Virus record (IMG/VR): IMGVR_UViG_3300019999_000002
Coordinates: 1 to 55,664 of that record
DNA: 55,664 nucleotides
Direction: 5' to 3' (one strand)
Origin: a virus
Taxonomy: Duplodnaviria; Caudoviricetes
Positions within the stretch are counted from its first letter, which is position 1. Each line of letters begins with the position of its first letter. This document shows positions 1,521-27,978 of this stretch, piece after piece. Made by a program: the position numbers and the translations under genes. The notes beneath the pieces were generated by a model. It saw nothing but the letters and a program-made list of their open reading frames with translations. It had not been told where the DNA came from and did no database searches.

Positions 1521-4500
1521 ATGCCAGTGGACCTATCGGATTGGGAACCAGTAGCAGCGCCGAGCAAATCAAAAGCTGATTTTTCAGATTGGGAACCAGT
1601 TCCCGATACCGCAGGACCCTTCGAGCCATCGGGCGTCATTGACAAAACAAAACAGACCCTCCCCAGTCTCGAAATTCCAGAGTGGCAGACGCGCGAGATG
1701 ACACTGCATCCAACGGTGATGCCCGATGTCAAGCCTGCGCTAAATTTATACCAGCAGCTTACCAAACCTTTAGCCGAGACTAGGCAACAGGTATTCGAGC
1801 CGTTACGAGAAATGGAAGGCATCAAGCCGCAACCGGAATGGATGCAGGTTCCCGAACCCCCAAGGCAGCCAAGCACAGGGTTGGAAAAGGGCGAGGACAT
1901 TTTAGAAGGTGTCCTGAAAACAGGATCATCATTTGCCGATTTCTTCACTTCCCCTTTGGGCGTTGGAACATTGGGAATCGGCTCATTGCCTGCCGCACTT
2001 CAAAAAGTTGTCGCTCTCGGTTTCGCCACGACGATGGCCAAAGAAGTCCCGCATATCGCAACCGAACTTGGAACAGAACTCGGAAAGCCAAAAGAGGAAC
2101 AAGACCTGGCCAGGATTTCCGAGTTGGTGAGTCAGGCTGTTGCCAACACGGGCTTTGCCGCATTGGGTGCGGCACATGGCGCAGGCCGTCCACTCGCTGA
2201 AAAGTTGGGGGCTTATCCCGCAACCGATATTTCGGAACCCGCAGCAACTCAACCTCCAGACTTCAACCAAGGAGAACCAAATGCCAATCCGCAGCCAAGC
2301 CCAGTGGAGATACCTCGCAATCCACCACCCGAACCTGCTGCACAAGTGGCAGCAAGAGAGCCCGGTGCTGTTCAACAGCCTGCCGAAGCACCACCCAAAG
2401 GAGAAGATCAGGGCGAAACTCAAAGCCAAGCGCCGGAAGAAGTAGCTTCTCCAATTGCAGATAACCTCTATGTAACTGACGATCTGAGTCTCAGAAACGC
2501 TCCGGTTAAACTCTCCGACGTAATTGGTGTAAAAAAAACCACCAACGATTCTGTACAAACCGTTTACGCAATCCGATACCGCTTTCTGGAACGAGATGGT
2601 AAGCTATCAGAAGGACTGGCCTACAGTGATGATCCGGTTTGGGAACTGCATGAAAAGTTCGGAAAGGGGTTTGGAGAGACAAAATCAACAGAAAAAGCAG
2701 CGGCTCAACCATCCCCGCCAGTTGAGGCAAGTCCTGCCGCAGCAACTCCTGCCCAAGAGCAAGGTCCGGGGATTGTGGGGAATCCTGACATCACAACCGG
2801 GGCATTGGGCAAGAAAGGAATGGGCGCAGCGAATTACAGCGAGGTTGAAGGCCAAGGCGATCCTGATATTTACGGCGTAGCGGAACGTGTCAGGGAACAA
2901 CGTGCCAAGGCCGGTCAGACCATTCCCATTGACCCCGGCAAAGGTGTGAGCGCACTTGAAGCCGTGGTTCACGGCCAGGACTTATTGGCCAAAGACCCCA
3001 ATTCGGCGAGAGTTGCGGTTGATGAATTCTCAAAGAATAAGGCCATCTCGTTTGACGGAATGGCCGCTACCCGAGCAATGGGAGAAAAAGCTTTTCGTGA
3101 TGCGCGACGAATCGAAGAAAAGTTCGGCACGGATTCGCCCGAATACAAAGCCGCGTTCCTGGATGCTGTCCAGTGGGACAAAGCCAGCAAAGAGATGCAG
3201 ACCGAGTGGCACAAGCAAGGCCGAGCGCAACAGGGCCAAACCGACATAGACACCGGCTCATTCACCGGACTCCAAAGAGCGTTCAAGTCAGACACCGAAA
3301 AAGATTTTACCCCCAATCAGGCAGGCACAGCCAAGAAAAAGGCTTCCAAGGTCAAGCAGGCTTCCGATGCTGCGACCGAAGCCAAAGGAAAACTATTAGA
3401 TCATCTCGACAAAGAATCCAAGGGGACGGATGCGGAGAAACGCGCTCTCGACGCCGCAAATAAAACCGTTCGAGAAAACGCCATTCGGATTGCTGAACTG
3501 GAAAATAAAGTCCGCATTGCCCGCACAGTCCGGGAAGGTGAGATAGCCAGGATTCAACTTGAGCGCGAGAACGTCAATCAGCGGGCCGCGCAACAGGGGG
3601 CCCGATCAGCCGCGGTTAAGCTGGCCGAAGCTGAAAACAAGAAGCGTATTGCAGAATCTTCTCGCAAGGCTCTGGACGATCAGGTTAAGGCCACACAGAA
3701 GGCTTTGGATTCCGCTCGCAAGGTAGCCACGGACGCAGCAACCAAGTTGGCCGATGCTGAGACAAAACAGCGTGTCTCAAAATCCTCCTCGGATCGAAAG
3801 GCTGCGAATGCTGAACGTCTTAAAATCCAAAAGGTTCTCGACGCCGCAAATAAACAAGTGAGAGACGCCGCAGTTGCTCTTGCAAAGGCTGAACGCGATG
3901 CCAGAGCCAACCCCGAACAAGCCGTTTGGAAAAAGGTCCGGGAGTATCTCGACAAAGGCGAGGATGATTTTGACGAAATCCGAAACAAGGTCGCTACCGA
4001 CCTGGGGATGAAGGTTGAGAAAGTCACCCGCCTTTTGAACGAAACAAAGCGTGCAAAGTTTTTGGCCGATGACGTTTGGCGCAAGCAGCAAACCGAACGC
4101 CGAATGAAGGAAGATGCGAAACGATGGCTGACAAGTATTGAAACGCCATTCTACCACAAGGCGCTTGCCAACATTCCAAAGATTTTGTTTGGGTTGAAAG
4201 TCGGTTTTCACGGCACGGTTGCGCTCGGCACTCACGCCCCAATGGTAGCTTTCCAGCCCCGCTTTTGGAACAGCTACATTCGGGACTTCGGCAAAATGTA
4301 TCGGATGGTCAATCCAAAGGGCGGGAAGGCTTATTACGAAATGCAGGTCCAGGATCTGCTTCGCCGAAAGAATTATGTCACTGCTCGCCGTGCCGGCCTG
4401 GTAAACGATCCGTTCGTTTTCGAGGATTACAACAGCCCCGACACAGCCAAATATTTCGGGGGATTAACCGGCATGGGAAACCGCGGCTATTCCGTTCTCA

Positions 4501-5866: not shown

Positions 5867-6712
5867 ATGCCCTATTCAGATCCAGAAATAGGCAGACAGA
5901 GGAAGCGGTTGTGGTTAAAAAATAACGCCGCAAAGGCCGCTCAATATGCCAGGAATTTCCGTCAAAGGCACAGGGATAGAATCAATAAAGAGGCTTACGA
6001 CAAGATACTCGCCACAAGACCTCCCAAACCAGAAAAATGCACCGCTTGTGACTCGAATCGAATTAGATGGTCCAATGGTGCCTGGGAATGCGCGGATTGC
6101 TGCCGTATATCCGCCGAAAAGAGATCGGTTGAGAGAAATAGGATTGAGCAGATAAACGAACGTTACCAATGCCTTATCCCTCTTTACGGACAGAAAGCAG
6201 CCGATATTTACCGAGGTCACGCCATAAAGCATCCTTACAAGCTCAGATATGGCCCACAAACCATCCACCGGCTCTGTCTGCCACGAGACTACCAGAAACT
6301 CTCAGAAGCCAATCTGGAACGTATTTATACTCTCAACGTCCTTCTCAAACTTCCATTCGGAAACATAGGCTGGACGTGTCAGAAATGCGGTGTTTATTCC
6401 GGAGAGTTCGCCTTCTTCGACATAGATCATATATCTCCAAGACTTAAAGGCGGTCACGGCAAAAAAGATAACCTCCAAGTTCTGTGCCCGAACTGCCACC
6501 GAAAGAAAACCTTGCTGGACGTTTTTAATCGAACAATTTGCCACACCGAATTACTTTCAATACATACACCGGAGCCTCGCGCTACCTACCCCGCTCCCAC
6601 GGTTAGACCCCTGTCCCATACGTCACGGGAACCGTCGCAACAACACCCTATAAGTGGCCAGAATCATGTACCGCCACGACCGCCCTCTGTGTCCCTAGAA
6701 GCCATAGCCTGA
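5867..6712 (+). CDS. HNH endonuclease with zinc-ribbon motifs
   Basis: CQKCG...DIDHISPRLKGG...NLQVLCPNCHRKKT. Additional CxxC pairs in the N-terminal part. Confidence 0.85.
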   Translation: MPYSDPEIGRQRKRLWLKNNAAKAAQYARNFRQRHRDRINKEAYDKILATRPPKPEKCTACDSNRIRWSNGAWECADCCRISAEKRSVERNRIEQINERYQCLIPLYGQKAADIYRGHAIKHPYKLRYGPQTIHRLCLPRDYQKLSEANLERIYTLNVLLKLPFGNIGWTCQKCGVYSGEFAFFDIDHISPRLKGGHGKKDNLQVLCPNCHRKKTLLDVFNRTICHTELLSIHTPEPRATYPAPTVRPLSHTSREPSQQHPISGQNHVPPRPPSVSLEAIA

Positions 6713-18421: not shown

Positions 18422-18669
18422 AATCCAGTCCCCGTTCGAACCGAGTCGAACCTGACGCCAGTGGGCTTAGTCGCCACACGCTTTCCAGCCCGCTCATTCC
18501 AATAAACCCGCGCATCGAAAGTGTTTCCCGCCGTTGGTCCTCTGGCTCCGCAGTAGTCGCAGCGAACCTGAACCCCATAAACCCTACCGCCTTTTCGCTT
18601 TTGCTCTGACGCTCCGCAGAACGGGCAGGGGAGTAATGAGGGTGAGACGTGCCAGCTTTTCTTTTTCAT
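18418..18669 (-). CDS. Lar-family (restriction alleviation) zinc-finger protein
   Basis: LLPCPFCG...VRCDYCGARGP...WNER. Confidence 0.8.
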   Translation of the reverse strand: MKKKSWHVSPSLLPCPFCGASEQKRKGGRVYGVQVRCDYCGARGPTAGNTFDARVYWNERAGKRVATKPTGVRFDSVRTGTGL

Positions 18670-19064
18670 CAGTGTCCAAATCGTTTAACATTGTTCTCTC
18701 TGCCGTGCCATTGAATTTGAAACTCTGCATACGATCGCAGTAACTCCAATGTCTGATCTCGAAGCTCTCGAAGGTGCAACACCCGGCATTTCCATTTGCC
18801 ATGGACCTGCTCCTTTACAAGCTTCGAGTCAGTCCAGATATGCAGTCTAAAGGCAGTCGGCTCTTTGATATGGTGAGAAAGCCATTTGAGAGCGGCTATG
18901 AGCGAAAGATACTCAGCCTGGTTGCAGGTCGAAGGTGGCTCAAAGTCCATCCTCTCAACCCGATGCTTCCAAGATTCGGATTCGATCTCGTAGGAGCCAT
19001 AGCCTTGAAGCTGGTATCCGTTTCCAACCGATCCGCCATCGAACCAGATTTTAATTGTGTCCAT
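18669..19064 (-). CDS. Ribonuclease HI-like protein
   Basis: IWFDGGS.GN, TCNQAEYLSLIAAL, IWTDSKLVKEQVHGKWK, QWHGRENN. The D-E-D catalytic triad is present. Confidence 0.9.
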   Translation of the reverse strand: MDTIKIWFDGGSVGNGYQLQGYGSYEIESESWKHRVERMDFEPPSTCNQAEYLSLIAALKWLSHHIKEPTAFRLHIWTDSKLVKEQVHGKWKCRVLHLRELRDQTLELLRSYAEFQIQWHGRENNVKRFGH

Positions 19065-19548
19065 TGAATTGATCTTCGTTGTTAATCAAGATGACGTTGG
19101 GAGGGAGTGAGCGAGCCAAAGCCCCCGTAAAGGGGCAAGGATTAACGCCGGTCGGTCGGTCGCTTCGCTTTTTCTTAGTCTTTGGCACATCTTTCCCATC
19201 GGAAGCCGCACAGCTTAACGCGCTGTCACTAAGAGCCTGTTGAGCGTGATGCAATAAGAGCCAGCTCAACTTCTTTAAGACGGTCGGGTCATTCTCAGCC
19301 GTCCATGTTTGATATTCCCGTTTCCTGTATCCGCCTTTGCGGAGCTTCCGAAGAAGCCGGGGAACCACGGTAGCCATACCCTCAAAAAAAGAAGGTGCTC
19401 GGTTTGAAAGAGGCTGGAGATCGCTGTAGAAGCCTGCTCCAAACGGAGCACCGAGCACGGAAATTAACTTACCATAGCGATCTCGCAGCGTCCAGCTTTC
19501 AAACTGGCCGACTACACCAACACTTTTACACCCTCGGGCCGCTTTCAT
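19051..19548 (-). CDS. Hypothetical protein
   Basis: Packed ORF with a basic low-complexity C-terminus. Confidence 0.4.
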   Translation of the reverse strand: MKAARGCKSVGVVGQFESWTLRDRYGKLISVLGAPFGAGFYSDLQPLSNRAPSFFEGMATVVPRLLRKLRKGGYRKREYQTWTAENDPTVLKKLSWLLLHHAQQALSDSALSCAASDGKDVPKTKKKRSDRPTGVNPCPFTGALARSLPPNVILINNEDQFNGHN

Positions 19549-19565
19549 GCAAACACTTTCGTAAT

Positions 19566-19868
19566 TTATTTTTTCTGGTAAATCCCTCTGCTAACTCGTG
19601 TAATCTCGCCTTTTTTTACAAACCTGTGAAGTATTGAGGCAACTCGCTGGCGAAAAACCATTTTCCCAAATGCTTCAATCGGGTCCATGACGGTTTGGAC
19701 ATTATCCTTTTGGCGATAGCAAGGGTTACACCGCTTTCCAGAGAACGGGCTTATCGGATTTCCGCAGTCAGCGCATAGCGATGGATAGCCTTTAGAGATG
19801 AGATCATCGCAGGACAAATTGCCCGTTGAAAACAGGTTCCAGAGAAGTATTTCGCGGCCTCTTGTCAT
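19566..19868 (-). CDS. Zinc-finger plus winged-helix-like protein
   Basis: CADCG...RCNPC; LHRFVKKGEITRVSRGIY. Confidence 0.6.
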   Translation of the reverse strand: MTRGREILLWNLFSTGNLSCDDLISKGYPSLCADCGNPISPFSGKRCNPCYRQKDNVQTVMDPIEAFGKMVFRQRVASILHRFVKKGEITRVSRGIYQKK

Positions 19869-20013
19869 TTTGTTTTAAACACCCTCCTAACCGCGCTGCA
19901 AATCGCGCCCCAGGCCGTGCCAGCGAATAGCAGCAACGCCACGAGGCCGAGCATGAACATGCCCGCGCCTTCCAACTCGCCCCGGTTGGCCTCGGATTCG
20001 GGGTCTGAATCGT

Positions 20014-20262
20014 TCATATCGGATGGTGTCCTTCCAGTTTTCCAATGCGCTCTTTCTTCTCTATGAACTCCCGCATCAATTTCAAAATGTCCGCCTGCTG
20101 GCCGTTGGCGACGTAGTTCATGCGCCCCGGAGCATCGTTGAAAGGAAAAGCCATAATGAAGAAGCCCCAGCCCTGCGGCAGTTCCTCGTCCACGAGGCGG
20201 CCAAGCTTCTGCATTTGGTCGCGGGTCCATGCGTCTTTGCCGTCTTCGGGTTTGATGTCCAT
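20014..20262 (-). CDS. Conserved phage hypothetical protein
   Basis: GWGFFIMAFPF...MNYVAN...DILKLMREFI. Confidence 0.65.
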   Translation of the reverse strand: MDIKPEDGKDAWTRDQMQKLGRLVDEELPQGWGFFIMAFPFNDAPGRMNYVANGQQADILKLMREFIEKKERIGKLEGHHPI

Positions 20263-20264
20263 TG

Positions 20265-20558
20265 TCAGCTCCAGAATCGGCCTGCCCGCAGAACAGAGTT
20301 TGTCCGTATCGAGCCGACAACGTGTTCGGTCACGATGCGAACCTCAACTTCCACCTTGCCGGTCAGAAGAATCCGCAGGCGGTCGGTGAAGGATAGAACG
20401 CTCTTGCTCTTGGTTACGATGCAATCCTGGAATGACGGCGGCGCTTCGGGTACGTGGCAGATGACGAATGGAAAGAGTTTGGATCTCAATCGGTCTCGCC
20501 AAGTCCAAGTACAAGGCTGGTCAGGCGCACAGCAGTTATCGGTTTCAGTCGTTTTCAT
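20265..20558 (-). CDS. Hypothetical protein
   Basis: LSFTDRLRILLTGKV motif; packed ORF. Confidence 0.6.
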   Translation of the reverse strand: MKTTETDNCCAPDQPCTWTWRDRLRSKLFPFVICHVPEAPPSFQDCIVTKSKSVLSFTDRLRILLTGKVEVEVRIVTEHVVGSIRTNSVLRAGRFWS

Positions 20559-20727
20559 GGTTTGTAATCCACTGGGTCAACGTCCTCTTTTTGCAATTGG
20601 TCCTCGATTCGAGCGATGGTCCGCTCGTAGCTGTTGGCCAGCCTCACCTGGTCCCGGTTCCGTGCCTTGCCCATCTCGGCTTGTAGCCGGTGCCATTCGG
20701 CGCACAGCGTTTTCTTTTGGGCTTCGG

Positions 20728-21318
20728 TCATAGGCTTTTACTTTCTATCGCGGCGCGGATTGATTGCTCCCATCGCATCCTTGGGGCTACGGCTTGATTG
20801 GTTCTGCCTTTGCGCGGTCGGTTTCCCCATCCAGTCCATCCACGGGCTCGGGGTTTGAAATTTTCAGCATGTTTCCATCCAGCCGCCTTGTAAATTGTTC
20901 CTGAGTGCGCGGATAAATCCTGATAGGAAATCAGCCGATTTACTTCCGAGAATCGTTTGAGAATGTCCCGGCGCATCCATCCAAGCATTCGGCTCGCGGT
21001 GAACTTGGGAGAATCATCACAAATTGCGAACCGACGCAACTCTAGCCACTCCCTTTGCGGCAGAAGCCGCGCAACCGGATTTGACCATGTAGCAACCGCG
21101 TAGATGAGGTTGCCGCACTCGGCCAGATAGCACACTCGGAAGTGGCTGTTTCCGATTTTAGGAAGCCGCGAATGCCATCGGGTGTTCAGCGCCCTGAACA
21201 CGGACTCATTGCACGCTGAGAATCGAAGTTGGAGCGCAGAGGTCGGAGTTGAACCGCCATATTCCGCTTGGAAAAGCGGACACCCTACCCTTGGATCATC
21301 TGCGCAAAATTCATTCAC
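20728..21318 (-). CDS. Mom-like (GNAT-fold) DNA base-modification enzyme
   Basis: WHSRLP, AVATWSNPVAR, LELRRFAI, ASRML, LISYQD...HSGTIYKAAGW match Mom/XF1762-type proteins. The GTG start overlaps the upstream TGA. Confidence 0.85.
   Translation of the reverse strand: MNEFCADDPRVGCPLFQAEYGGSTPTSALQLRFSACNESVFRALNTRWHSRLPKIGNSHFRVCYLAECGNLIYAVATWSNPVARLLPQREWLELRRFAICDDSPKFTASRMLGWMRRDILKRFSEVNRLISYQDLSAHSGTIYKAAGWKHAENFKPRARGWTGWGNRPRKGRTNQAVAPRMRWEQSIRAAIESKSL
21230..21305 (-). tRNA. tRNA-Gly(UCC)-like element embedded in-frame in the mom-like CDS (non-canonical)
   Basis: GCGCAGA/TCTGCGC + T + CCA; D-arm ATCC-AAGGGTA-GGGT; TCCGC-TTTTCCAA-GCGGA; T-arm GGCGG-TTCAACT-CCG(A)CC. Confidence 0.85.
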
Positions 21319-22000
21319 CGTTCGCCCTTCTTCCTTCTGGCCTTGGTTCTCACCGACGCGCGACCGGCGAGAAAGGCTTGTTTGAGTCGGACTTCACTCA
21401 ATGCCCATGACGGGTCTGGAACATCTCTCAGCGCGAGGTAATTCGAGCACACACATCCGACCGGGCTATCAATCCACTTCTCGAACGCTTTGGCGGCACT
21501 CATTTCGGCTCCTTATTTGGAAAGGTTTGCTCAAAACTTTTTCCGGTAGTGATCTTCAATGCGAAGCAGTAAAGAATCGCCATCACCAACCCGCGAGGCA
21601 TCACGCTACCCCGTTTATTCCATGCGTTGACTTCCTCGCGGGCGATCTTCCAAACGTCGTAGCGGGGATTTTTCACGCGCATCCTTTCCCCGAGCCAAGT
21701 GACCAGCGAGCGATGAACCACACCGCAGCGATGCAGATTGCGGCCAGCATCACGCGGAGAAGCAGGAGGATGATGGACCCGAGGATCATCGCTCTGGCCC
21801 CTCGTTGTCATCGCTGTCACACGCACGGCATAGTCCCATGCGAATCTCCGAACCGCGCAGCAGCTTGTCGCAACGCTCGCAACGGGCTTCCTCTGGCCCG
21901 TTCACTTGGTCCAAGGTTACGCCAGGTGGTAAATTGTAACCAGCCGGGGGCGGGAGTCGGGTCGGGTCGCTCATTTTCGTTTGATTGGTTTACTGCGTGA

Positions 22001-22282
22001 TTAACCCGCCGTTGGAGCCAGCAGCACTTCTTTGGACTTTTTCTTTCTCGTGGCTCCGTTTGCTGTGCGAGCCTTTGGCCGGCTGCTGCCTTTGGTCGTC
22101 AGCACGTCAACGATCTTCTCTGAGTTAGAGAGGATTGCGTCGAGGATTGCAGCCACACTGGCAGGCGTGATGCTGGACAGTGGCTCTTGCAGGATGAGCG
22201 CGACTTCCTCTTTCTGCGCCTCGGCGATGCTGCCGAAGATTTTACCGTTGCTGCTCTGGAATGACTGCGTTTTGACTATCAC
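22001..22282 (-). CDS. Hypothetical protein
   Basis: FQSSNGKIFGSIAEA; GAAAGGA upstream. Confidence 0.6.
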   Translation of the reverse strand: MIVKTQSFQSSNGKIFGSIAEAQKEEVALILQEPLSSITPASVAAILDAILSNSEKIVDVLTTKGSSRPKARTANGATRKKKSKEVLLAPTAG

Positions 22283-22321
22283 TGTTTTCCTTTCGTTTGA
22301 GTTGTGGTTTGTGTGAGGGGG

Positions 22322-23050
22322 TTAGACATCAATCGCAGTTGGATAACGACCGGCCCTGACCCCGGCCTTGACGATCGGCGTGGCTATAACCCCTTTTGGC
22401 GTGACGCCCATTTTAAGCAGGTTCTTAATCTCGCCCATCAAAGGTTCAAGCTTCACACAATTGGAATGGCACCGATAGAGCAGGTGAACATCTTGGACGA
22501 CCACATCCCAGTCGTTCGTGATCCTCTGGCCTTCGGCTCGGACCGGCTCGGGCGGTGGCGCAACCGCAGCAGCAATGGCGCTGAAATGTTCCGCAACCTC
22601 ATCGAGCTGTTCGTGGGTTTGGGCCTGGGCCATTGCTGTGGCCCTGTCCCGTTCTATTTGTAGCAATTCCTGATTGCGAGCCTGTTCGGCAGCGCGGACC
22701 TTGGCTTGCTCCAAAGCAGCAAAATCCCCAGTCATCTGCGACACCCTCGTTATCGCGGTCTTGAGATGCTCGATGAATATCTTAGCTGCCTCATCAATTT
22801 TCCGACCGTACTCCAGCACGGGCTCCTTGCAAGCCTTGCGCGATTTCTCGGTTAGGCTGATAGCCGTCTGGAGCGCGGTCTGTGCCTGGACCGCAATTTG
22901 GTTTTCCTCTGGCGTGGTCACTTGTTCGACAGCATCGGCCAGGGCCAATGCGTCGGCCTTCATGGTCTTGGCCTCGGCTGTGAATGTGATGGTTAACTTG
23001 GTGTCGTTGCGCACCATCAAAGTTTTATCCTTCAATTTCTCGATATTCAT
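22322..23050 (-). CDS. Coiled-coil protein, Gp157/Gam-like
   Basis: Long Ala/Glu helices, EKSRKACKEP...IDEAAK, C-terminal PKGV; next to SSB. Confidence 0.55.
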   Translation of the reverse strand: MNIEKLKDKTLMVRNDTKLTITFTAEAKTMKADALALADAVEQVTTPEENQIAVQAQTALQTAISLTEKSRKACKEPVLEYGRKIDEAAKIFIEHLKTAITRVSQMTGDFAALEQAKVRAAEQARNQELLQIERDRATAMAQAQTHEQLDEVAEHFSAIAAAVAPPPEPVRAEGQRITNDWDVVVQDVHLLYRCHSNCVKLEPLMGEIKNLLKMGVTPKGVIATPIVKAGVRAGRYPTAIDV

Positions 23051-23418
23051 GCGTGTTCGGGTTCTAACTGTCCTTTTATGTCATCTATCATCCGGTTCAT
23101 TTGTTCCACGTAGAACAAATCAAACCCCTTGCCGTCCATTTTCTTCGCCTCAGTCTGTTGTTTCCACCACACGAACAGAACCGCTCTGAGACGAACCGAA
23201 GGGGTCTTAGCATCTAAATCACCCTTAACCTCAATCAAAGCCTCAGCCGGGGTGTCAGTAGGCTGAATCAGGAGCCTTACATTGAGGTTGTGAAGCTCAA
23301 TTAAGGCAACCTTCTCGGCTGCGCTGAGTTCCGGGGTTACTCCCCGGAACCCAAGCGAGCCATCTGCCCGACTGGAAAATCCAGTCAGGATTGCGCTGGT
23401 AGTGAGAGCTTTTGGCAC
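23047..23418 (-). CDS. Conserved phage protein (KTPSxRLRAVLF family)
   Basis: Motif KTPSVRLRAVLFVWWKQ...FDLFYVEQM. Confidence 0.65.
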   Translation of the reverse strand: MPKALTTSAILTGFSSRADGSLGFRGVTPELSAAEKVALIELHNLNVRLLIQPTDTPAEALIEVKGDLDAKTPSVRLRAVLFVWWKQQTEAKKMDGKGFDLFYVEQMNRMIDDIKGQLEPEHA

Positions 23419-23421
23419 AGG

Positions 23422-23877
23422 TCAGAATGGAACATCGTCTTCTTCCAGTGGCGCATCAAAAGCCGTGTCCACAACTTGCACCGGCGCTGGCGCTGGCGCA
23501 GGCTTCGGCTGAACTGGCGCAAGGCCACGCGCTGCTTGCGGGCTTGCCGCAGCCCTGCCTCTTGGTGCCCGCACCCTGATACCGCCCACGAGTTTCCCGC
23601 CAAAGCTCACACTCGGATCGTCGTATAGCACAATCTTTGCCCCGGTCCAATTGTCAGTTTCCTCTGACTTCACTATCTGGGCTATTAACTGGCCATTGGT
23701 GGAATTGAGCACCATCGGCTTTTCATATTCCGCGAAGGACAGGCACCAGCGTAATTCTTCCGGTGCGCCTTGCTTGGCCACGTTTTCCTGATGCACTTCC
23801 TTGATCGTTACCAACACACCGGCACCGACATCGGCCCTGGTCAAGAAGTTGGATTGTTTGAGTCCTGATATGTTCAT
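23422..23877 (-). CDS. Single-stranded DNA-binding protein (phage type)
   Basis: SNFLTRAD...KPMVLNSTN...WTGAKI...GIRVR, a Pro/Ala linker and an acidic EEDDVPF tail. Confidence 0.75.
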   Translation of the reverse strand: MNISGLKQSNFLTRADVGAGVLVTIKEVHQENVAKQGAPEELRWCLSFAEYEKPMVLNSTNGQLIAQIVKSEETDNWTGAKIVLYDDPSVSFGGKLVGGIRVRAPRGRAAASPQAARGLAPVQPKPAPAPAPVQVVDTAFDAPLEEDDVPF

Positions 23878-23880
23878 GTT

Positions 23881-24156
23881 TTAGCTTTCTGTTACTGGTT
23901 TTTGGTTGATTTCTTTTCGTTGGTTTTGTTTTGCTGCGGTGGAAGATTGCTCGGACAGCCTGAGTATTTTCTCGGCGAGCCATTGCAATTCACGACCCAG
24001 CTTGTCGTATCGAGCGCGAAGCACGGCGAGACGACCACGGGGATGGTGGTGACGACAGAAACCGTCACAGACTGGTGGGTTCCAGCATCGGATCGGTCTT
24101 TCAGCGGTTGACCATTTAGTGAAGCCTTTGCATTCCGCATGTTTGGAATAGTTCAT
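23881..24156 (-). CDS. Small Cys/His protein
   Basis: CKG...RCWN...GFCRHH. Confidence 0.5.
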   Translation of the reverse strand: MNYSKHAECKGFTKWSTAERPIRCWNPPVCDGFCRHHHPRGRLAVLRARYDKLGRELQWLAEKILRLSEQSSTAAKQNQRKEINQKPVTES

Positions 24157-27208: not shown

Positions 27209-27324
27209 CGGGACGTGAAGATTGCCGGAAATTCCAAAACTGCTAGTGGCAACGAATGGTTCACTCCATCGGCTATCTTCACAAATGGTGTCACTGGCAG
27301 TTTTGGAGCTTCAAAGGGATCGTC

Positions 27325-27978
27325 ATGCTTCAAAAAGGTTGTGTGTGCTCGCGCACATTCGTTGATTTGATAGGGAAAATATTTGGCCGGCTCACTGTAA
27401 TATCCTACTTGGGGAAAAACAAAAAGGCGCAGAGGGAGTGGGTTTGCCAGTGTGTCTGTGGGCAGAAGCTAACACTCACTACCGCTTCTATTTTTGCAGG
27501 ACATACAAATTCCTGCGGCTGCTTACAAAAAGAGCTTCTAATCGCCAGAAGGCGCATTCACGGAGAATCCAGATCCAAAGAATTTAGGATTTGGAGCCGC
27601 ATGAAAGGACGGTGCGAATCTCCGGCATATCATCACTTCAAAGACTATGGCGGTCGTGGAATAACAGTTTGTGAAAGGTGGCAGCGTTTCCAGAACTTCC
27701 TTGATGATATGGGAAGATGCCCTCCAAAAATGAGCATCGAGCGCAAGGACGTGAATGGGAATTATGAGCCGAGTAATTGCAAATGGGCAACAGCAATAGA
27801 ACAAGCGAACAACCGAAGGAACTCGCTCATTTTAACATTTAACGGCAAGACTCAGACCGTCTCTCAATGGAGCAGAGAACTCGGATTTATAGCGGGCACA
27901 ATCGGAAGGCGACTTGCTCGCGGATGGGCTGCTGGAAAAGCATTAAGCACACCACTCAAACCATCTCGCTGGCATTAA
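27325..27978 (+). CDS. HNH homing endonuclease
   Basis: GKIFGRLTV...CQCVCG...SCGC...HG.S...WSRMKGRC...YGGRGI.VCERW...SIERKDVNGNYEPSNCKWAT..EQANN. Confidence 0.9.
   Translation: MLQKGCVCSRTFVDLIGKIFGRLTVISYLGKNKKAQREWVCQCVCGQKLTLTTASIFAGHTNSCGCLQKELLIARRRIHGESRSKEFRIWSRMKGRCESPAYHHFKDYGGRGITVCERWQRFQNFLDDMGRCPPKMSIERKDVNGNYEPSNCKWATAIEQANNRRNSLILTFNGKTQTVSQWSRELGFIAGTIGRRLARGWAAGKALSTPLKPSRWH

Follow-up and report, generated by a model that had tools for sequence, protein, structure and literature searches.

We analyzed a 76-nucleotide (nt) tRNA-Gly(UCC)-like element that lies, together with its encoded CCA, on the minus strand at positions 21230-21305 of the IMG/VR record IMGVR_UViG_3300019999_000002, inside the open reading frame (ORF) of a Mom-family DNA modification protein. 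The window, as the whole stretch of analyzed DNA is called below, is this entire record, which represents one complete uncultured phage of 55,664 bases (100% complete by CheckV rating). From comparison with homologous loci, we consider that the element is probably a dedicated, non-decoding glycyl carrier that is encoded with its Mom enzyme, and that it appears to belong to a large, apparently undescribed family of Mom-linked tRNA-Gly-like RNAs. An earlier note on this DNA (the original prediction) had proposed an EF-Tu-evading glycyl carrier for a DNA-modifying enzyme. This central proposal is well supported by comparison, and the original prediction as a whole is partly supported.

Anatomy and detection of the element

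The element corresponds to codons 5-30 of the Mom ORF, the start codon of which lies 13 nt upstream of the element. The acceptor stem (GCGCAGA at 21305-21299 with TCTGCGC at 21240-21234) is composed of seven Watson-Crick pairs with no flaw, and the discriminator T73 (21233) is followed by the CCA (21232-21230). The D-arm reads ATCC/AAGGGTA/GGGT, the variable region is 4 nt long and the anticodon stem pairs TCCGC (21280-21276) with GCGGA (21267-21263). This stem bounds an anticodon loop of 8 nt, TTTTCCAA (21268-21275, minus strand), in which T34, C35 and C36 are conserved; the outer T and A of the loop are pairable, in which case a 6-nt loop would remain. In the T-arm (GGCGG/TTCAACT/CCG-A-CC, 21241-21258, minus strand), GGCGG (21258-21254) pairs with CCG-A-CC (21246-21241), with a single A bulging from the 3' strand between positions 63 and 64 (A21243), as seen both in the sequence and in homologues. 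The embedding in the gene, the flawless acceptor stem, the 8-nt loop with its capacity for further T-A pairing and the bulged A had all been described in the original prediction and were all confirmed. The element contains the complete bacterial tRNAGly identity set (G1:C72, C2:G71, C35, C36 and U73). What it lacks are two canonical features of a translational tRNA, namely a 7-nt anticodon loop with U33 and an uninterrupted 5-bp T-stem.

ARAGORN reported the element as the sole tRNA of the window, given as tRNA-??? with the two-base anticodon '(tc)'. When the extra loop base was removed in silico, the same program named it tRNA-Gly(tcc). The Rfam tRNA model RF00005 scored 30.0 bits against a gathering score of 29 (E 0.028), which is a narrow margin, and its alignment placed inserts exactly at the extra base of the loop and at the T-stem bulge. 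Our own covariance model, R1, assigned 92.5 bits to the element. In the minimum free energy structure of the single sequence, only the acceptor stem survives and the cloverleaf is not formed (z = -2.3). A scan for promoters and terminators found none on the minus strand near the element.

Conservation and covariation in the window subfamily

A protein search with the window Mom yielded 708 relatives at E <= 0.001 among 892 candidates, and the window Mom was aligned with 31 of the 120 relatives listed. In this 32-sequence alignment, the translation of the element, CADDARVACPLFQAEYGGSxPTSALQLRF, is kept down to 62% overall identity. Scanning IMG/VR with the protein alignment retrieved 79 loci of 39-84% identity, which together with the window are referred to as the window subfamily. 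From these, 48 distinct 76-mers were taken by the criterion of a 7-bp acceptor stem at a fixed offset and were aligned without gaps. Unless stated otherwise, the results in this and the following section refer to these 48 distinct elements.

With eight shifted-register sequences retained in the set and scored as unpaired cells, 94.3% of the cloverleaf cells were paired, as compared to 41-51% when the partners were slid by one to three columns. Compensatory changes on both sides were found in 16 of the 22 pairs, doubly changed cells numbered 164 versus 13-33 in the slid controls, and none of 500 shuffles matched any of the five pairing measures. G-U pairs are frequent on the mom strand. The consensus computed by RNAalifold from 47 of the sequences (the single sequence without an ungapped WHSRLP motif being left out) is the same cloverleaf, including the bulge and an extra closing pair of the anticodon loop; in the same 47 sequences, no structure was predicted for the flanks, of which 40 nt on the 5' side and 75 nt on the 3' side were included. 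The latter result bears on an 8-bp hairpin inside the Mom ORF (GTGTTCAG/CTGAACAC, 21182-21201, minus strand), which had been put forward as a possible processing mark. The hairpin exists and starts 28 nt 3' of the CCA of the element, but such a role is not borne out, as all eight pairs form only in the window (1 of 47 sequences), with mostly two or three pairs elsewhere, and as no conserved structure was returned there. The hairpin should thus be considered specific to the window.

Codon usage shows where the sequence is held. The mean entropy of third codon positions is 0.98 in the element, 1.71 in the next 32 codons (the Mom core) and 1.79 upstream, and within the element the entropies climb from 0.55 through 0.71 to 0.98 over the three codon positions. 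Codon 5 is NGC (R/C/S/G), with its free first base falling outside the tRNA. The Phe16 codon is TTC in 46 of 47 sequences, keeping C35, and codons 21, 22, 25, 26 and 28 are almost invariant at all three positions. For the invariant core residues S50, R51, L52 and P53, all synonymous codons are in use. Residues 6 and 28 change jointly (G6/P28 to A6/A28 or the reverse) as pair 4-69 flips. Such a distribution of changes indicates that the constraint on the element acts at the RNA level, and neutral decay is excluded by the covariation and the frozen synonymous sites.

No stop codon interrupts the reading frame within the element in 47 of the 48 sequences, the exception (L061) being an extraction register error. 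An in-frame ATG, GTG or TTG is found 4-25 nt upstream of G1 in 40 of the 48, mostly at -10 or -13, and often has a Shine-Dalgarno-like purine run on its 5' side. Downstream of the element there is no conserved start codon, the next one in the window being a GTG at codon 40, within the conserved core. Because of the upstream in-frame starts and the lack of a conserved downstream start, translation most likely starts just upstream of the element and passes through it.

The covariance model built from the 48 elements was positive for the window and for 63 of the 79 subfamily loci, 47 of these 63 having contributed to the model. The remaining loci (L038, L054, L056, L058-L060, L063-L068, L070, L075, L076 and L079) hold PLF, P.S and L.L fragments, and the Phe codon is TTT in several of them.

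The two irregularities and the glycyl-tRNA synthetase determinants

When a one-base bulge is allowed, the T-stem forms five of five pairs in all 48 elements, and when it is not, every one of the 48 is left with zero to three pairs. The bulge is occupied by an A in 47 elements and by a G in one. Pairs 50-64 and 51-63, which flank the bulge, covary (GGCGG/CCGaCC, GAGGG/CCCaTC, GACGG/CCGaTC and CAAGG/CCTgTG). The anticodon loop is of 8 nt in 30 of the 45 subfamily elements in which it is bounded by a clean 5-bp stem, and the end bases of the loop are TA in 33, TG in nine, CG in three and unpaired in three. In eight distinct sequences, the extra base is found in the D-loop instead and the 7-nt anticodon loop is normal; for four loci with such a D-loop extra base, ARAGORN names tRNA-Gly(tcc).

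The determinants published for bacterial alpha2beta2 glycyl-tRNA synthetase (GlyRS) are G1:C72, C2:G71, C35, C36 and U73 (PMC10464925). G1:C72, C35 and C36 are each present in 48 of 48 elements, and C2:G71 and U73 each in 47; a 3' CCA is encoded in 38 distinct copies. The pattern suggests that selection favours charging, not decoding.

Of 60 loci scanned with ARAGORN, 53 were positive with the covariance model, and the program recovered 18 of these, with four of the 18 being named Gly. Standard tRNA finders thus mostly miss the element or leave it unnamed. One locus (L047) also contains a regular tRNA-Met (4057-4130, plus strand), about 1 kb downstream of the element, which scored 39.7 bits with the element model and can be used as a gauge of how ordinary tRNAs score under it.

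Linkage of the element to Mom across clades

To look beyond the subfamily, IMG/VR was scanned with a degenerate DNA pattern, 20 nt in length, that describes only the bulged T-arm. At least 118 stretches matched, and the following numbers refer to the 80 loci among the matches listed. A strict protein motif, WHS[RK]LP, caught only 18 of the 80, and an iterative hidden Markov model (HMM) was used instead. With this model, a Mom-like ORF segment was found within 600 nt and on the same strand in 75 of the 80 loci. The element lies in frame at the 5' end of the Mom ORF in 55 of these, just upstream in three and at or after the 3' end in 17. In L100, L106 and L144 it is located outside the Mom ORF, in L100 13 nt before the Mom ATG. 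Pfam was run on ten of the 75 loci and returned PF25680 in all ten (E 2e-11 to 4e-47); in these representatives, the domain starts directly after, or stops directly before, the element.

Five listed loci have no Mom ORF. Two of these (L114 and L164) are situated at contig edges, one (L093) is a 1.4-kb stretch, and the others are L149 and L153. In L149, a GNAT-like, unrecognized ORF lies upstream of the element. L153 contains only the 3' half of an element (T-arm, acceptor 3' strand and CCA, at about 4315-4343, plus strand), which comes after a ParB-like/methyltransferase-like ORF and may be a recombination remnant. In L142 (minus orientation), one element stands between two Mom-like ORFs; it follows the first after 8 nt and is read in frame where the second begins.

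As the pattern set contains the bulge by construction, a second clade was fetched by protein alone, using a Mu-like Mom ORF as the query (80 loci, L210-L289). In this Mu-like clade, the element model was positive in 76 of 80 loci, with two copies in L283. The mom frame enters or crosses the element at the C-terminus in 74 of the 76, and in the other two the element lies more than 30 nt past the stop codon. The element is read in the same register at the C-terminus here as at the N-terminus in the window subfamily. Among 52 distinct elements, the alignment of which was fitted to the covariance model and so favours the structure of the model, the bulged A is present in 52 and the T-stem forms five of five pairs in 52. 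G1, C2, G71, C72, U73 and C36 are found in 52 of 52, C35 in 51 and CCA in 49, and position 34 drifts (T in 30, A in nine, C in six and a gap in seven). The loops are mostly of 7 nt, with end bases that are pairable in 46 of 49. In some elements of this clade, the D-arm is much reduced, to give a total length of 67-69 nt.

Two such D-arm-reduced elements stand in tandem in Psychrobacter phage vB_PmaS_Y8A (L290, OQ059336.1), at 1853-1920 and 1925-1993, scoring 43.1 and 38.5 bits. They lie directly 3' of a Mom-like coding sequence annotated as 'hypothetical protein', in a stretch that carries no tRNA annotation, and the paper on this phage states that no tRNA genes were identified (PMC10434257). 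As this example illustrates, published phage annotations and standard tRNA finders overlook such genes.

The linkage between the element and Mom thus holds across clades and gene arrangements, and related genes that have the element next to or within them number in the hundreds. Of the two insertions that the original prediction had asked to be sought in homologous loci, the bulge recurs in all distinct elements of both sets (48/48 and 52/52), and the bulged A is a universal hallmark of the family. The 8-nt loop is typical of the window subfamily only (30/45), the general trait of the loop being its pairable end bases. The view that the insertions are not random decay holds, with strong recurrence in homologous loci and with a conserved acceptor stem and conserved GlyRS determinants.

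The Mom-family ORF and its neighbourhood

The ORF around the element (20728-21318, minus strand) starts with GTG and encodes 196 residues. The 'DNA-modifying enzyme' of the original prediction is recognized as a Mom-family protein by Pfam PF25680 (41.8 bits against a cut-off of 27.1) and by phrog_1384, 'Mom-like DNA modification protein', which matches residues 29-170 (E 2.3e-17). The NCBIfam model XF1762_fam scored 43.7 bits, under its cut-off of 50, and the crystal structure of Mu Mom (PDB 8bv8) gave a weak profile match (E 4.3e-4). No profile match starts earlier than about residue 29, a position just 3' of the element. An AlphaFold2 model computed from 32 sequences has a mean predicted local distance difference test (pLDDT) score of 65.9, the two blocks that make up residues 1-20 averaging 40 and 49, and its first secondary structure is a strand at residues 32-36. 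Because the profile matches start at about residue 29 and the model has no structure before residues 32-36, the element is predicted to encode an N-terminal appendage outside the GNAT core, which would start at about residue 29. By both lines of evidence, the peptide encoded by the element looks dispensable.

Residues R111, S124, D149 and R151 are essential in Mu Mom (PMC13219725). In a 61-residue HMM alignment, with a numbering offset of -9 assumed for the Delta10 S124A chain, the residues aligned to R111 and D149 (R96 and D134) are invariant and that aligned to S124 (S109) is kept in at least 90% of the sequences; by the same alignment and inferred offset, no Arg is found in the window subfamily at the place aligned to R151.

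Upstream of mom lies an ORF of 62 residues (21315-21503, minus strand) with no Pfam match. Its TGA overlaps the Mom GTG as GTGA, an arrangement that suggests translational coupling. We considered whether this ORF is a Com-like zinc finger and ruled this out, as it contains two Cys only and has no Pfam match. Downstream of mom and on the same strand are a small ORF with an AbiEi_4-type helix-turn-helix at its C-terminus (19566-19868) and an RNase H-like ORF (RVT_3/RNase_H, 18669-19064). Two HNH endonuclease ORFs are located elsewhere in the window, at 27256-27978 (plus strand, phrog_374, E 3.8e-67) and 5867-6712 (plus strand, phrog_333, E 3.4e-8).

The PHROGs search covered 19 of the 29 ORFs of at least 220 residues, plus the Mom ORF, at E <= 1e-5. 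It recognized three of these 20 ORFs, namely the two HNH endonucleases and Mom, and the 17 with no PHROG match include ORFs of 1307, 790, 656 and 614 residues. Megablast of positions 19000-24000 against cultured phages gave no match, and tblastn of the window Mom against cultured phages gave only distant matches of at most 35% identity, in all of which the N-terminus was uncovered. The phage is of a poorly charted lineage. A related phage contig in IMG/VR (L006) spans 65,262 bases, and its counterpart L083, which was the single locus obtained from a scan of genome contigs, is contig 1 of an Opitutaceae metagenome-assembled genome. Its placement there may hint at the host or may be an artefact of binning, and no clear host is indicated.

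A proposed private glycyl carrier for Mom and its alternatives

Mu Mom moves glycine from Gly-tRNAGly to the N6 of adenine in double-stranded DNA, and an on-base rearrangement after the transfer gives the carbamoylmethyl adduct (Silva et al., Nat Commun 2026, PMC13219725). Each of the three tRNAGly isoacceptors of E. coli can act as donor and Gly-tRNAAla fails; Gly-tRNAGly-dependent adenine modification is shown there for Mu Mom and two metagenomic homologues (PMC13219725). In the mechanism that we propose for the window phage, the element would be transcribed within the mom mRNA, and those transcripts that fold into the cloverleaf would be excised by host enzymes, with RNase P acting at the 5' end and 3' trimming proceeding to the encoded CCA. 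The released RNA would be glycylated by host GlyRS, and the Mom-family GNAT enzyme would take the glycine from this carrier and place it on the N6 of adenine in phage DNA. The T-stem pairs 49-65, 50-64 and 51-63 determine how tightly EF-Tu binds the body of a tRNA (PMC7826273). The bulged A sits within this three-pair determinant, on the 3' strand, and would hinder EF-Tu binding. An anticodon loop that is constricted or too large would not decode properly, and bulge and loop together would bar the charged RNA from translation; Mom may, in addition, recognize the RNA by one or both of these features. In the 5' arrangement, excision would strip the ribosome-binding site and the start codon from the message, and in the 3' arrangement, the stop codon would be lost. 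As excision would thus destroy the mRNA, each transcript would yield either enzyme or carrier, a partition that may also limit a toxic enzyme. An RNA product serving Mom is suggested by the selection seen at the RNA level, by GlyRS determinants that are kept when the decoding parts are abnormal or drifting and by the way the element accompanies Mom genes, whether at the 5' end, at the 3' end, apart from the gene or in double copy.

The same structure could instead work in cis, as a tRNA mimic that controls mom with no free RNA being used, either as an operator bound by Mom, GlyRS or another tRNA-binding protein or as an RNase P site that inactivates the mRNA. The tRNA-like operator in thrS mRNA is a classical precedent for such control. 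Since the start codon precedes the acceptor stem by 4-25 nt in 40 of the 48 distinct loci, a folded element would occlude the initiation region. The mom frame crosses the element at either end of the gene, and, according to the record annotation, mom of phage Mu needs tight translational control through Com. Nonetheless, the position of the element varies, being at the 5' end, 13 nt upstream, at the 3' end or 13-19 nt downstream, and this, like the tandem double copies in L283 and Y8A, better fits a product RNA. Moreover, conserved C35, C36, U73 and an encoded CCA would be superfluous for an RNase P site, and the wobble position 34 drifts when the GlyRS determinants stay. We therefore regard regulation in cis as unlikely.

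It should also be considered that the RNA is the functional unit and that the peptide ..PLF..GGSxPTSxLQ.. is, in addition, a working tail of Mom, such as a flexible tRNA- or DNA-binding arm. The register shared by the N-terminal elements of the window subfamily and the C-terminal elements of the Mu-like clade would agree with this, as would the 16 loci that have no cloverleaf and still keep PLF and P.S, the entropies that still rise over the codon positions of the element and the report that unstructured N-terminal residues 11-19 of Mu Mom matter for activity (PMC13219725). The shared register may, however, be forced, because TAA or TAG usually closes the two remaining frames of the D-arm. The amino acids, furthermore, follow the stems (e.g., G6/P28 versus A6/A28 with pair 4-69), AlphaFold2 confidence is low for residues 1-20 and in three loci (L100, L106 and L144) the element is outside the ORF. 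Such a dual function is accordingly given a small chance. The notion that the element has no tie to Mom chemistry, being a decaying phage tRNA, an attP or host tRNA-Gly copy or an anti-defence decoy, is highly improbable. In its favour, phages often carry tRNA genes and att sites derived from tRNAs, and L153 holds a 3' half only. Against this stand the covariation and frozen synonymous sites, the recurrence of the T-stem bulge and of an abnormal, end-pairing anticodon loop across copies, the Mom linkage of 75 of the 80 listed pattern loci and the internal position of the element in phage contigs. No tyrosine or serine recombinase (PF00589, PF00239) was found in the complete record, with the controls being positive, and the Opitutaceae metagenome-assembled genome that includes a related contig holds no close copy of the element elsewhere, only short, chance-level matches. 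An attP copy of a host tRNA gene in particular was rejected, as the record has no integrase match and the element is internal to the contigs.

The reading of the element as a private glycyl carrier has, for its part, several points against it that need to be considered. We infer processing, charging, EF-Tu evasion and use by Mom from sequence comparison. A private carrier is not required by the chemistry, because phage Mu has no element and Mu Mom uses host tRNAs; a search of phage Mu and Pseudomonas phage JD024 with the filters off found no element (best E >0.9). It is equally conceivable that RNase P or GlyRS is hindered by the bulge, and in a docking model the beta subunit of GlyRS contacts the T-stem (PMC10464925). 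A purely trans-acting RNA does not account for the passage of the mom frame through the element, which is seen at the 5' end here and at the 3' end in 74 of 76 loci of the Mu-like clade. Several canonical tertiary positions are relaxed (e.g., about one element in four has an A at position 8), and the T-stem is rich in G-C pairs, in contrast to the weak T-stem pairs of the staphylococcal non-proteogenic tRNAs discussed below. Finally, the cloverleaf is gone in 16 of the 79 subfamily loci and parts of the peptide (PLF...P.S) are kept there, for which reason the encoded peptide may have a role of its own. From their sequences, these 16 loci look like decayed versions in which the peptide alone persists.

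With these points in mind, we still favour a dedicated carrier for the window element. Whether it can be generalized is, in our estimate, evenly balanced: many Mom-type enzymes may be two-part systems, in which a GNAT enzyme is combined with a glycyl-carrier RNA fused into its first or last ~30 codons, the carrier being derived from tRNA-Gly and distinguished by the bulged A of the T-stem and a non-decoding anticodon loop. In such a system, the bulge would be an EF-Tu anti-determinant, a Mom determinant or both.

Implications and comparison with known systems

That the glycine source of Mom is a charged tRNA appeared in print only in 2026 (preprint 2023), and the authors view tRNAGly as a scavenged host resource (PMC13219725). 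If the carrier reading is true, the view of the pathway shifts from scavenging of host tRNAGly to a dedicated, translation-insulated carrier, and one can explain how glycyl-tRNA is drained late in infection without starving the phage's own protein synthesis. The element would also present a natural, compact design of a charged tRNA that is ignored by EF-Tu and the ribosome, which would be useful for tRNA engineering. It would further join the rare instances in which a gene for a structured RNA and a protein frame share the same bases under visible dual constraint, and it would be a tRNA reserved for a role outside translation, with a gene that overlaps the reading frame of its own consumer enzyme. 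Our literature searches gave no example of the latter. Nor did they give a published report of the element family; term look-ups in the main texts of PMC13219725 and of the 2023 preprint yielded no mention of it.

The element shares with ordinary phage tRNA genes its cloverleaf, T-loop, D-loop GG, encoded CCA and location on a phage genome. It departs from them in its T-stem bulge and its non-canonical anticodon loop, in lying within a protein frame and in being tied to one enzyme family. tRNA-like modules in longer RNAs include the 3' tRNA-like structures of plant viruses, MALAT1 mascRNA, mitochondrial tRNA punctuation and the thrS operator. Like these, the element has a tRNA shape within an mRNA-like transcript and is possibly recognized by tRNA enzymes; to our knowledge, none of them is part of a coding sequence, in bacteria or phages, whose enzyme would use up the charged product. 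tRNASec carries an EF-Tu antideterminant in its acceptor/T-arm, where it has 8/5 or 9/4 helices, relies on the dedicated factor SelB and still decodes. In both cases, an altered acceptor/T-arm geometry would keep a chargeable tRNA off EF-Tu, with a single bulge being proposed to do so in the element.

Phage Mu is similar in that its Mom belongs to the same enzyme family (PF25680, with the 8bv8 match). It differs from the window locus in having no element, in being described as a scavenger of host tRNAGly and in controlling mom through Com. A likeness in role exists to the S. aureus tRNAGly species NP1-NP3, glycine tRNAs that serve the GNAT-fold FmhB/Fem transferases outside translation (PMC7826273), as the element is proposed to serve Mom. 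NP1-NP3 are charged by the normal GlyRS and have a T-stem that disfavours EF-Tu (PMC7826273), and we propose the same for the element by analogy. The staphylococcal comparison drawn in the original prediction stands insofar as the T-stem pairs that set EF-Tu affinity are published, and fails insofar as the means differ. The S. aureus non-proteogenic tRNAs have weak A49-U65, U50-A64 and A51-U63 pairs (PMC7826273), whereas the element has G-C, G-C and C-G at these positions, plus the bulged A. NP1-NP3 are, moreover, stand-alone chromosomal genes with 7-nt anticodon loops, and the element overlaps the ORF of its enzyme. The acceptor is DNA for the enzyme of the element and a peptidoglycan precursor in the staphylococcal system. 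By this comparison, the element and the staphylococcal tRNAs are alike in their proposed role and are not of the same family.

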